From: Escherichia coli
GTDB taxonomy: Bacteria > Pseudomonadota > Gammaproteobacteria > Enterobacterales > Enterobacteriaceae
NCBI RefSeq assembly: GCF_029227855.1
Contig: NZ_CP074356.1
Direction: 5' to 3' (one strand)
DNA: 64,000 nucleotides
The notes beneath the pieces were generated by a model that was not told the origin of the DNA, ran no database searches, and saw nothing but the letters and a program-made list of their open reading frames with translations. Made by a program: the position numbers and the translations under genes. Below are positions 25,246 to 47,479 of this stretch, one piece after another. Numbering within the stretch: the first letter of the stretch is position 1; each line of letters begins with the position of its first letter.

Positions 25246-26201
25246 TGAGTAAATCACACCCACGCTGGCGCTTAGCAAAGAAGATCCTCACCTGGCTGTT
25301 TTTTATCGCGGTGATAGTGTTGCTGGTGGTCTACGCCAAAAAGGTGGACTGGGAAGAGGTCTGGAAGGTCATCCGCGACTACAATCGCGTTGCGTTGCTC
25401 AGTGCGGTCGGGCTGGTGGTCGTCAGTTATCTGATTTACGGCTGCTATGATCTGCTCGCCCGCTTTTACTGCGGTCACAAACTGGCGAAGCGCCAGGTGA
25501 TGCTGGTGTCGTTTATCTGCTACGCCTTCAACCTGACGCTTAGTACCTGGGTCGGCGGCATTGGTATGCGCTATCGTTTGTACTCCCGGCTAGGGTTACC
25601 GGGCAGCACTATTACGCGGATTTTCTCGCTCAGTATAACCACCAACTGGCTGGGCTATATTTTGCTGGCCGGGATTATCTTTACCGCAGGCGTGGTGGAG
25701 CTGCCGGACCACTGGTATGTCGATCAAACCACGCTGCGCATTCTCGGCATTGGCTTACTGATGATTATCGCGGTTTATTTGTGGTTTTGCGCTTTCGCGA
25801 AGCACCGCCATATGACCATCAAAGGACAAAAACTGGTGCTGCCTTCATGGAAATTTGCCCTCGCCCAGATGCTGATTTCCAGCGTTAACTGGATGGTAAT
25901 GGGGGCGATTATCTGGCTGTTACTTGGTCAAAGCGTGAACTATTTCTTTGTACTGGGCGTGTTGCTGGTTAGTAGTATTGCTGGCGTCATCGTGCATATT
26001 CCGGCGGGGATTGGTGTGCTGGAAGCGGTGTTTATCGCGCTACTGGCTGGGGAGCATACCTCCAAAGGTACAATTATCGCCGCCCTACTCGCTTACCGTG
26101 TGCTGTATTACTTTATCCCACTGCTGCTGGCGCTGATCTGTTACCTGCTACTGGAAAGCCAGGCGAAGAAGCTACGAGCGAAAAATGAAGCGGCGATGTG
26201 A
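25245..26201 (+). CDS. ybhN: Inner membrane protein YbhN (UPF0104 family)
   Basis: 318-aa polytopic membrane ORF, translationally coupled to clsB. Confidence 0.88.
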   Translation: MSKSHPRWRLAKKILTWLFFIAVIVLLVVYAKKVDWEEVWKVIRDYNRVALLSAVGLVVVSYLIYGCYDLLARFYCGHKLAKRQVMLVSFICYAFNLTLSTWVGGIGMRYRLYSRLGLPGSTITRIFSLSITTNWLGYILLAGIIFTAGVVELPDHWYVDQTTLRILGIGLLMIIAVYLWFCAFAKHRHMTIKGQKLVLPSWKFALAQMLISSVNWMVMGAIIWLLLGQSVNYFFVLGVLLVSSIAGVIVHIPAGIGVLEAVFIALLAGEHTSKGTIIAALLAYRVLYYFIPLLLALICYLLLESQAKKLRAKNEAAM

Positions 26202-26236
26202 AGTTTAGTTAAGTTCTTTAGTATGTGCATTTACGA

Positions 26237-26626
26237 CTAATGAAAAAAACGCGTATGCCTTTGCCAGACAAGCGTTATAGCTATCGCGGCAAGTATCCCA
26301 AAGAAGCCGATAAAATAGTAATAGAGTGTTAATGCACCTGTAAAAGCGCAACGAACCGGACTCCACAACTCTTCGCTATGGCATTTTCCTGCCAGTTCAA
26401 GGAGCTTATTTCGTCCATGCGAGATAATGCCTAACCATAACACAATCATTAAGCAACTTATTACCCAAACGGGTCGTTCACTCATTAATGCGGCATTCAT
26501 GATGATCACCAGGGCCAGCCCTGCGGTTGCCACCATACCCAAAGCGGTAATGAGCCATATGCCGTTTAATATCCTGGCTTCGTGCTGAAAATCTAATTTA
26601 TTGCTGTTTTGCGAGTATGATTCCAT
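26237..26626 (-). CDS. ybhM: Small 3-TM inner-membrane protein at the ybhM position (BI-1/YccA-like N-terminal pattern; possibly truncated)
   Basis: 129-aa ORF; residue pattern ARILNGIWLITALGMVATAGLA and AFTGALTLYYYFIG resembles the first three TM helices of BI-1 family proteins (YccA/YbhL); gene symbol assigned by position and is uncertain. Confidence 0.5.
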   Translation of the reverse strand: MESYSQNSNKLDFQHEARILNGIWLITALGMVATAGLALVIIMNAALMSERPVWVISCLMIVLWLGIISHGRNKLLELAGKCHSEELWSPVRCAFTGALTLYYYFIGFFGILAAIAITLVWQRHTRFFH

Positions 26627-26830
26627 TCTTTTAGTTATCCTTAGATAAAATATTAATATTCACCATCAATAAATTTAAAACCACGCATACAAAATACTTT
26701 TGTATTTATGGATACGGAAAACACTTCCGCTCGGCCATAAGGCATATTTTATACCTGGTACTTGTTAAGTGTCGTTTTTAGTAAGAAAAAAATCCCGACA
26801 CATGGCCGGGATATTGATGGTGAAAAAGAA

Positions 26831-27535
26831 TTAACGGCGGTTGCCGAAGATCCGCAACAACATCAGGAACAAGTTGATGAAGTCCAGATACAAGGTTAAC
26901 GCGCCAAGAATGGAATATTTGCGCAGGTTCGACGTGTCGCGGGTATCAATCTGCTCACCCATATTTTTCAATTTCTGAGTGTCATACGCCGTCAATCCGA
27001 CAAAGACAATCACGCCGATGTAGGTAACTGCCCACATCAATGCTTCGCTTTTCAGCCAGAAGTTGACCAGCGATGCCAGCACAATGCCGATTAACGCCAT
27101 AAACAGCATATTGCCAAAGCCGCTTAGATCGCGCTTCGTGGTGTAACCGTACAGGCTCATTGCGCCAAACATCCCGGCAGTAACGACGAAAGTACTGGCG
27201 ATAGAAGCAGCGGTATAGACAATGAAAATACTGGAAAGCGTAAGACCCGTCAGCGCCGAATAAAGCATAAAGAGCATCGTCGTTACACCTGCGCTCAGCT
27301 TTTGAATCATCGCTGATAACACAATAACCAATGCTAATTGCGCGATGATCAGACCGATTAAAAAGACACGGTTAGTGAACAACAGCTCCATCACGGCCGC
27401 GGAATTAGCCGCATACCAGGCAACAAATGCGGTCAGCAACAAGCCAACGGTCATCCAGCCATAGACTTGCGCCATATAAGTTTGCAAGCCAGCCCGGGGT
27501 TGTACAATTGAATCAGAACGTGGGAATCTGTCCAT
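26831..27535 (-). CDS. ybhL: BAX inhibitor-1 family inner-membrane protein
   Basis: Internal ATG at 27535 with AGGAGA RBS gives 234 aa (MDRFPRSDSIVQPRAG…); seven predicted TM segments. Confidence 0.88.
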   Translation of the reverse strand: MDRFPRSDSIVQPRAGLQTYMAQVYGWMTVGLLLTAFVAWYAANSAAVMELLFTNRVFLIGLIIAQLALVIVLSAMIQKLSAGVTTMLFMLYSALTGLTLSSIFIVYTAASIASTFVVTAGMFGAMSLYGYTTKRDLSGFGNMLFMALIGIVLASLVNFWLKSEALMWAVTYIGVIVFVGLTAYDTQKLKNMGEQIDTRDTSNLRKYSILGALTLYLDFINLFLMLLRIFGNRR

Positions 27536-27634
27536 GACGATCTCCTGAAGATATAAGGAATATCTTAAGGATACTGCAAAATGATGAGGCTGTGCATCGA
27601 CGCAGCGTAAACGCATGTACTGAGCGGTGAAATT

Positions 27635-45289: not shown

Positions 45290-46342
45290 TCAGGGAAGAA
45301 AAACTTCACCGGAAAATATTTTTCTGGTTGTCCGAATAACAGATGCGCGTAACGTCGTGGCATCCTGACCTTCATTACTTAAATGAACGTCGAGCGCACC
45401 ACTGGGGTGTTCAATATTGATATTGCCGTATCCTATAGAAGAGACGATTTGTCGGGTGACGGTGCCTTCCAATGCACAACTACTGGAAATGGCAATAGCA
45501 CCGGTTATCGCCAGCGCGCGATGGCAAGAATGCGGCATAAAATAACGCACATTAATTGCTCCGCCTTTCTGCGCTGGAGAAATAAGCACAGGTTTAGGGA
45601 TAACCATATTACTGACATCGCCTAAGCCCATTGCTTTACCCGCTTGTAGACGGATAGATTCAATGCGAGCTAATAATGCTTTGTCGGCATCCAGTTCCGT
45701 CGGTAATTCATAGCCTGTTTTTCCCAGATATTCAGCAGGAATAATGACAACTGGCATCGCCATATCGATACAGGTCACCGGGACATCGTCAAAATAATCA
45801 ATCTGATTATCCGTCGGGAAGACTTTTCCGGTTTTGGTTCCGGCGGCATTCAGGAAAGTGAGCGCAACCGGTGCGGCAGTACCCGGTACGCCGTCAATTC
45901 TGGCGCTACCCTCGTACTCGACAACACCATTTGGCGTTTGCACATCAGCTTCGATGAACGTACCCGTATTGACGTTGCGGATACGTACGCGGGTAACTGG
46001 CGAAGTCGCTGCAATCAAACCATTTTCAATGGCGAATGCCCCAACGCCAGACAGCATATTGCCGCAGTTAGGCGTGGTATCGACACGTTGCTCATGGACG
46101 ATAACTTGAGCAAACAGATAATCGACATCAGCACGCGGATCGCTGGAACGGCTAATAATGGCGACTTTACTGGTCAGCGGATTACCGCCGCCAATACCGT
46201 CAATTTCCAGATCGTTACCGGAACCCATAATTGCCATCAATATTTTATCGCGCTGCGTTTGATCTTCGGGTAGATGTTCCGCTAACAGGAACGCGCCCCT
46301 CGAGGTTCCACCTCGCATCATCACGCAGGGTATTTTTTTCAT
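45290..46342 (-). CDS. ybhH: PrpF/AcnD-accessory-family isomerase
   Basis: 350-aa ORF matching YbhH. Confidence 0.9.
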   Translation of the reverse strand: MKKIPCVMMRGGTSRGAFLLAEHLPEDQTQRDKILMAIMGSGNDLEIDGIGGGNPLTSKVAIISRSSDPRADVDYLFAQVIVHEQRVDTTPNCGNMLSGVGAFAIENGLIAATSPVTRVRIRNVNTGTFIEADVQTPNGVVEYEGSARIDGVPGTAAPVALTFLNAAGTKTGKVFPTDNQIDYFDDVPVTCIDMAMPVVIIPAEYLGKTGYELPTELDADKALLARIESIRLQAGKAMGLGDVSNMVIPKPVLISPAQKGGAINVRYFMPHSCHRALAITGAIAISSSCALEGTVTRQIVSSIGYGNINIEHPSGALDVHLSNEGQDATTLRASVIRTTRKIFSGEVFLP

Positions 46343-46525
46343 AATAATGCCCTCAATTTAAAAACATAACTTATTGCGATATGGTTACATTAAGGGCAAA
46401 GCATCTCTAATGACTTTAGCTCAACGATTAATAACATTTTTTCATTAATTTAAGTTAGCTAAATGCAGTTAGAATTTTTAACGGCCAGTCACCCAAAATC
46501 GACGCTTCCATTTTCCGGAGTAATA

Positions 46526-47479
46526 ATGAAGCATGAATTATCAAGTATGAAGGCATTTGTCATACTGGCAGAGTCCAGTTCATTTAACAATGCCGCTAAA
46601 TTACTCAATATTACGCAACCTGCATTAACGCGAAGAATAAAAAAGATGGAGGAAGATTTACATATCCAACTATTTGAGCGTACAACTCGCAAGGTTACGT
46701 TAACAAAAGCAGGAAAAAGATTGCTCCCGGAGGCGCGGGAATTAATAAAGAAATTCGATGAAACGCTTTTTAATATTCGTGATATGAATGCTTATCATCG
46801 TGGTATGGTGACATTAGCGTGTATTCCGACCGCAGTATTTTATTTTTTACCGCTGGCAATCGGTAAATTTAATGAGCTTTATCCCAATATTAAAGTGCGG
46901 ATTCTGGAACAAGGTACGAATAATTGCATGGAATCGGTGCTGTGTAACGAATCAGACTTTGGCATAAACATGAACAACGTCACAAATTCATCCATCGATT
47001 TTACCCCACTGGTCAACGAGCCGTTCGTGCTGGCCTGTCGGCGTGACCATCCATTGGCCAAAAAGCAGCTTGTAGAATGGCAGGAGTTAGTGGGTTACAA
47101 AATGATTGGCGTACGCTCCTCCAGCGGCAACCGACTGTTGATAGAACAACAGCTAGCCGACAAGCCCTGGAAGCTGGACTGGTTTTACGAAGTGCGTCAT
47201 CTTTCGACGTCATTAGGACTGGTGGAGGCAGGACTGGGGATTTCGGCGCTTCCTGGTCTGGCAATGCCCCATGCGCCCTATTCTTCGATTATTGGTATCC
47301 CACTGGTGGAACCGGTTATACGTCGGACATTGGGGATTATTCGCCGCAAAGATGCCGTGCTTTCTCCGGCAGCTGAACGCTTTTTTGCCTTGCTGATTAA
47401 TTTGTGGACTGACGATAAAGACAATTTGTGGACCAATATCGTCGAACGCCAGAGACATGCGTTACAGGAGATAGGTTAA
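46526..47479 (+). CDS. ybhD: LysR-family transcriptional regulator
   Basis: Internal ATG at 46526 gives 317 aa with an N-terminal LysR HTH; divergent from ybhH. Confidence 0.88.
   Translation: MKHELSSMKAFVILAESSSFNNAAKLLNITQPALTRRIKKMEEDLHIQLFERTTRKVTLTKAGKRLLPEARELIKKFDETLFNIRDMNAYHRGMVTLACIPTAVFYFLPLAIGKFNELYPNIKVRILEQGTNNCMESVLCNESDFGINMNNVTNSSIDFTPLVNEPFVLACRRDHPLAKKQLVEWQELVGYKMIGVRSSSGNRLLIEQQLADKPWKLDWFYEVRHLSTSLGLVEAGLGISALPGLAMPHAPYSSIIGIPLVEPVIRRTLGIIRRKDAVLSPAAERFFALLINLWTDDKDNLWTNIVERQRHALQEIG

Follow-up and report, generated by a model that had tools for sequence, protein, structure and literature searches.

A common Escherichia coli ybhM allele with a 324-bp in-frame internal deletion between direct repeats, most likely encoding a loss-of-function remnant

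What stands at the ybhM position of a 64-kb stretch of Escherichia coli DNA (the window, meaning the whole stretch analysed), where the gene between ybhN and ybhL is little more than half as long as its K-12 counterpart, and how was it shortened? An earlier reading of this locus from the letters alone (the sequence-only reading) had found room there for one 129-aa open reading frame (ORF) and had put K-12 YbhM at about 237 aa. Both points held. The ORF listing gives no homology-supported gene other than the 129-aa ORF in 26202-26830, and K-12 ybhM comprises 714 bp and 237 aa (NZ_CP064680.1, WP_000446911.1). A K-12 protein of about 129 aa with the same sequence, which would have made this an ordinary gene, is not what K-12 encodes. 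An Rfam scan of 26000-27000 returned nothing meaningful, its one PsrR1 match being sub-threshold (E 0.89).

The ORF is the orthologue of ybhM by position. It is flanked by ybhN and ybhL, and the 35-nt and 204-nt spacers, the start and the stop are all as in K-12 (Table 1); the gap between ybhN and ybhM measures 35 nt in 16 of the 16 loci compared, with 0-4 differences. At ybhM the window is 100% identical to E. coli JNEC-KY178, and the RefSeq entry for the ORF is WP_001578023.1, named either 'Bax inhibitor 1 family protein' or 'hypothetical protein'; no NCBIfam model names the short or the full-length YbhM protein. Because it shows 96% identity to the corresponding parts of a full-length YbhM and matches Pfam Bax1-I with E=1.2e-7, the ORF is what is left of a real gene rather than a reading frame that arose by chance. 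In the neighbouring ybhL, the mechanical ORF (window 26831-27616) reaches an upstream ATG and yields 261 aa, the RefSeq form being 234 aa from 27535; the Pfam domain starts at residue 18 of the 234-aa form.

Table 1. Features of the ybhN-ybhM-ybhL locus, in window coordinates.
Feature	Position	Strand	Remarks
ybhN, 318 aa	25245..26201	+	flanking gene
Gap between convergent ybhN and ybhM stop codons, 35 nt	26202..26236	.	between ybhN and ybhM
ybhM, delta-324 allele: 129-aa ORF, ATG start, 390 bp	26237..26626	-	collinear with full-length alleles
Deletion junction: one hybrid copy of the 11-nt direct repeat, CAGGGCTGGCC	26513..26523	-	ORF nt 104-114, codons 35-38
ybhL-ybhM spacer, 204 bp, AT-rich	26627..26830	-	K-12 length, 6 substitutions
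Shine-Dalgarno-like AAGGA, 5' of the ATG at 26626	26638..26642	-	identical in full-length alleles
ybhM promoter-like ACGACA-16-TATAAA	26748..26775	-	-35 at 26775-26770, -10 at 26753-26748; consensus scan
Intrinsic-terminator-like hairpin of ybhL, ATCCCGGCCATGTGTCGGGAT	26792..26812	-	followed by T-run 26786-26792
ybhL, 234 aa, canonical BI-1/YccA paralogue	26831..27535	-	PF01027 212 bits; BsYetJ match E=1e-8

Aligned as DNA and as protein with full-length ybhM, the window allele (hereafter delta-324; 390 bp against 714 bp in K-12) lacks exactly 324 bp from the middle of the gene, a multiple of three that corresponds to 108 codons, residues 37-144 of 237. The first 36 codons (5' 108 nt), the last 93 codons (3' 282 nt), the stop codon and the 35-nt gap beyond it remain collinear with full-length alleles. 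The gene has thus lost an internal segment in frame and has not been truncated at its C-terminus. The sequence-only reading had rightly proposed a BI-1/YccA-family gene shortened by a deletion without a frameshifted remnant, and the alignments to full-length ybhM bear this out; it had put the loss at the C-terminus, however, and had taken what is left for the first three BI-1 helices. The difference in length (129 against 237 aa) and the presence of three hydrophobic segments speak for such a truncation, but the allele ends as full-length ybhM does, through its last 93 residues, its stop codon and the 35 nt beyond, what is lost being codons 37-144, and the Pfam alignment falls on the C-terminal third of the domain. 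The DNA and protein alignments with full-length alleles thus refute a C-terminal truncation, to which we attach next to no probability.

Over its 129 retained residues, the short protein is 91-96% identical to full-length YbhM alleles and 93-96% identical to K-12 YbhM (b0787), an inner-membrane protein of the BI-1/YccA family with which it shares the locus, the 204-bp spacer, the start, the stop and the C-terminus. Its match to Pfam Bax1-I (PF01027) covers profile positions 129-205 of 207 at 32.1 bits, below the gathering cut-off of 34.1 bits; full-length K-12-type YbhM scores 68.8 bits over positions 3-205. Neither in Pfam score nor in coverage does the short product amount to a whole BI-1/YccA domain. 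PF01027 links it by distant homology to YbhL, YccA and BsYetJ (PDB 4PGR), with whose helices 5-7 its C-terminal part aligns; unlike those proteins, it stays below the gathering score and is without helices 2-4.

The AF2 model of K-12 YbhM (pLDDT 78), from which we used just the helix boundaries, places helices at residues 4-43, 54-76, 79-100, 103-127, 134-154, 159-189 and 197-235. By these boundaries residues 37-144 begin in the last part of helix 1 and stop midway through helix 5, so that the deletion is predicted to remove helices 2-4 entirely, together with the tail of helix 1 and the first half of helix 5. What is retained is a hybrid of helices 1 and 5 followed by helices 6 and 7, and not helices 1-3. 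Hydropathy gives three hydrophobic segments, in agreement with the three helices (3-48, 53-84 and 90-128) of a low-confidence AF2 model of the short protein (pLDDT 69.5, pTM 0.44), where the BI-1/YccA family, and K-12 YbhM by prediction, have seven. A Foldseek comparison of the full-length model with the PDB gave no match at E<=0.001; the alignment behind that model was shallow (10 sequences), and YetJ came second in the list (E 0.56, TM 0.39-0.42). Nothing relevant emerged from a sequence search of K-12-type YbhM against PDB chains, YbhL alone reaching BsYetJ.

YbhM departs from its relatives at full length as well. Identity to YbhL is 23%, and every YbhM allele aligned has Gly and Tyr ('SHGRNKL', 'LYYYF') at the positions where YbhL and YetJ have a pair of conserved Asp residues ('YDTQKL', 'LYLDF'). 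In BsYetJ this pair is D171/D195 and has a pH-sensor role. Full-length YbhM too is an atypical BI-1 paralogue, without the Asp pair of helices 6 and 7. Homologues of YbhM were found just in Escherichia and Shigella. The literature on ybhM, and that on YbhL, YccA and Bax inhibitor, assigns no function to YbhM, and the literature on ybhM does not describe the deletion allele.

The junction points to how the segment was lost. All breakpoint positions within ORF nt 103-114 cost the same, and full-length alleles carry an imperfect 11-nt direct repeat (consensus CAGGRYTGGCC) whose left copy, CAGG[A/G]CT[G/A]GCC, falls in helix 1 and whose right copy, CAGGGTTGGCC, falls in helix 5; each copy encodes G-L-A. 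The two copies lie 324 nt apart in all 11 of the full-length alleles examined, and a single hybrid copy is left in all nine short alleles. In the full-length alleles sampled, left and right copies agree at 9-10 of 11 positions, where chance would be expected to give 0-2 nt of microhomology. The repeats bracket the loss, one copy remains and the length of the loss equals the repeat spacing.

Loss of the DNA between short direct repeats, with one copy left behind, is the signature of slipped-strand events or illegitimate recombination, and spontaneous deletions of this type are classically described for lacI in E. coli. The ybhM case resembles them in its parents, with two 11-nt copies 324 nt apart, and in its product, with one hybrid copy; it differs in that delta-324 is no laboratory mutant but occurs in nature as a polymorphism that many lineages have fixed, and in that the copies are imperfect (9-10 of 11). 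Because the junction anatomy fits a deletion between direct repeats, replication slippage between them is the most likely mechanism. The two imperfect repeats, in the codons of helix 1 and helix 5, would mispair, and illegitimate recombination, most likely by such slippage, would remove the 324 bp between them.

The allele is frequent. We counted junction-spanning 45-mers in 5,426 complete E. coli genomes and found delta-324 in at least 477 of them (8.8%), a lower bound obtained by counting junction variants individually, because megablast needs a 28-nt exact word and the junction-spanning windows are polymorphic. The window-type junction accounts for 185 genomes, a G36E+N44D derivative for 178, the CAGGACTGGCC-type junction for 102 and CAGGGTTGGCC-type junctions for 12; the deleted segment is absent altogether from 617 of the 5,426 genomes (11.4%). 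Within a large protein collection, 199 contigs encode exactly the window protein, 848 a sister variant and 248 a Q122stop variant (121 aa). Carriers include PCN033 (phylogroup D), porcine ETEC, avian strains and O103 strains. Among short alleles, G36E at the junction codon together with N44D gives the hybrid helix two acidic residues (for example, at L024 1915-2304), and some others have frameshifts in the terminal T7 run. These counts also dispose of an assembly or sequencing artefact, a repeat collapsed in the window: the short repeats are present, which is all that such an error would have in its favour, but identical junctions recur in hundreds of independently finished genomes and the exact protein is found on 199 contigs, and we dismiss this explanation entirely. 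Delta-324 is a common natural variant and belongs to ordinary strain-to-strain variation. As an object it is already known, being an allele of a known gene, with its own RefSeq accession and from a textbook class of mutation.

The same 324-bp deletion could have arisen independently several times, at a slippage hot spot, or once, with later spread by descent and recombination. Recurrence would suit the three junction spellings (CAGGGCTGGCC, CAGGACTGGCC and CAGGGTTGGCC), each of which fits left- or right-copy polymorphisms of different full-length haplotypes, as well as the fact that deletion state and SNPs 6-17 nt to either side of the junction occur in every one of the four possible combinations. 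Short alleles differ pairwise by 2-5% in their retained DNA and sit on ybhN flanks that differ by 1.4-3.4%, and ybhM has undergone further repeat-mediated in-frame deletions, all of which point the same way. Against recurrence, L31M (nt 91) is common to the window, G36E and PCN033/O169 types (369 genomes), and a 132-nt L31M probe found no exact full-length allele, the best having 1 mismatch; because L31M is private to these three types, they share one origin despite their two junction spellings. The locus is also visibly mosaic, and recombination could explain the rest.

None of the sampled full-length alleles agrees with any short allele both 5' and 3' of the junction. The closest approach on the 3' side (276 nt) still leaves 3 differences and that on the 5' side (102 nt) leaves 2, each in a different strain, so that no recent recurrence was caught and the short alleles are old, mosaic or both. 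The remaining two types are without L31M and may be independent recurrences or recombinants. SNPs that had appeared private to short alleles were rejected as origin markers, because the addition of GF60 and N3 showed that full-length alleles have most of them too; L31M alone stayed private. Repeated origin strikes us as a serious possibility, a little short of an even chance.

Base composition and expression signals were compared with those of K-12. The interval 26202-26830 (629 bp) has a GC content of 39.4% against 52.3% for the whole window, and just 0.55% of 629-bp windows across the 64 kb are as GC-poor. The sequence-only reading had judged by eye that the ORF and its upstream region were richer in AT than the neighbouring genes, and the figures agree: 44.1% GC for the short ORF and 32.4% for the 204-bp spacer, against 52.5% for ybhN and 48.5% for ybhL. 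The AT-rich upstream region of some 200 bp is nonetheless not peculiar to this allele; it is the normal one, since the same 204-bp spacer, with 6 differences, lies upstream of ybhM in K-12. A SELEX study assigns both an H-NS site and a constitutive sigma-70 promoter of ybhM to the K-12 ybhL-ybhM spacer (PMC3946193), and the promoter hexamers in the window, ACGACA and TATAAA, are those given there for K-12. Comparison with the K-12 spacer shows that the terminator hairpin, the promoter and the Shine-Dalgarno sequence are kept in the short allele. Because the in-frame deletion spares all of these signals, transcription of delta-324 from the H-NS-bound, AT-rich promoter region and its translation should proceed as they do for ybhM, and the short ORF probably matches ybhM in its expression. 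It would yield a three-helix membrane protein of 129 aa whose first helix joins the front of helix 1 to the back of helix 5 and whose other two are helices 6 and 7.

A second GC-poor patch, down to 36.6% GC, lies at window 46050-46550. It covers the 5' end of a 350-aa ORF (45290..46342, minus strand), a 120-bp divergent intergenic region and the start of an ORF for a LysR-type regulator (46463..47479, plus strand), and it resembles an ordinary divergent promoter region.

Selective constraint on ybhM is weak. For the retained part pN/pS amounts to 0.14-0.16 and for the deleted part to 0.28, compared with 0.016 in ybhL and 0.022 in ybhN. Mobile elements interrupt the gene in several strains, namely IS1 in TUM9812, ISEc46 with a TnpB gene in GF43 and IS1B in E1433 (loci L012 1131-2620 and L022 1-2347), and an IS5 insertion in ybhM of HB101/RR1 has been reported (PMC5379014). 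Four other in-frame deletions leave proteins of 208, 195, 216 and 221 aa (losses of 29, 42, 21 and 16 aa; P0042, P0046, P0032 and P0029, respectively). Like delta-324, three of these four lie at short direct repeats (an exact 11-nt TGTTTTTAATC, a 9-nt ATCATCGTG and the 6-nt CGCCAT), which were read in parent-like alleles (L009 and L008) and not in the variants' own DNA. The four variants are rare, on 1-6 contigs each, whereas delta-324 is common, at about 9% of complete genomes. Because several in-frame deletions and insertions of IS1, IS5 and ISEc46 occur, we regard ybhM as dispensable, and a remnant would be tolerated because the gene is both dispensable and weakly constrained.

The locus varies in other ways. 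IS200C is found at the ybhM locus of strain E09, itself a carrier of the short allele. In some lineages, such as E. coli O104:H4 2009EL-2071 (L003 2421-3125), an extra BI-1-family gene of 234 aa (WP_001299026.1; 27-31% identical to YbhM) lies between ybhM and ybhL, at a site corresponding to window 26627-26830, and in strains with this extra paralogue the first 11 codons of ybhM are divergent (MNSRSANNITN...). Given the extra paralogue and the divergent ybhM start, the ybhL-ybhM locus appears as a small variable islet of BI-1 paralogues. In strain BHUCD02 (NZ_CM183444.1), whose 4,641,766 bp are K-12-sized, the central 317 nt of ybhM are 95.3% identical to those of K-12, and at this locus the strain is thus unfit as a stand-in for MG1655.

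Does delta-324, then, encode a remnant or a working protein? The absence of helices 2-4 would make the seven-helix BI-1 fold impossible, and because a product without them cannot form that fold, delta-324 most likely encodes a loss-of-function remnant as to whatever YbhM does. Some observations run counter to this. The reading frame is intact in the window, with neither frameshift nor premature stop, so that the allele does not qualify as a pseudogene by that measure, and the frame is likewise intact in most carriers although short alleles differ by 2-5% in DNA. Nor is pN/pS higher among short-short pairs (0.143, from nine sequences at a recombining locus, with pS 0.095) than among full-full pairs (0.158). 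This pattern fits purifying selection on a three-helix product, but it is equally expected from diversity inherited from several full-length parents or from recombination.

These same observations could be taken to mean that the delta-324 product is a selected, functional small membrane protein of three helices, for example one that modulates YbhL, YccA or FtsH or acts alone, and that the allele represents a functional length polymorphism and not decay. Consistent with this, the allele is old and widespread, being present in no fewer than 8.8% of complete genomes, its retained parts match no sampled full-length allele on both sides, and the union of two odd-numbered helices should, going by the AF2 model, leave helices 6 and 7 in their original orientation. 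Many short alleles, however, carry nonsense, frameshift or charge-introducing changes, the pN/pS signal can come from full-length parents or recombination, YbhM itself has no known function and is without the family's conserved Asp pair, and confidence in the AF2 model of the short protein is low. We consider a selected three-helix protein unlikely. The fuller proposal of an old length polymorphism, selected or repeatedly generated, whose three-helix product is made and is active in the inner membrane, for example in modulating YbhL, YccA or FtsH, seems to us slightly more unlikely still. We hold with high confidence that delta-324 is a natural ybhM allele, produced by an in-frame loss of 324 bp from repeat to repeat, and that its product is most likely a loss-of-function remnant.

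The significance of this allele is slight beyond annotation. Entries of 129 aa at this locus that are called 'hypothetical protein' or 'Bax inhibitor 1 family protein' are delta(37-144) YbhM and could be so labelled. Were the three-helix product expressed and active, it would offer a natural minimal fragment for an uncharacterised branch of BI-1 proteins, although nothing here indicates that. For the family, the locus presents ybhM as a variable, H-NS-associated and Escherichia-restricted BI-1 paralogue that accommodates deletions, IS insertions and an extra paralogue carried by some lineages.
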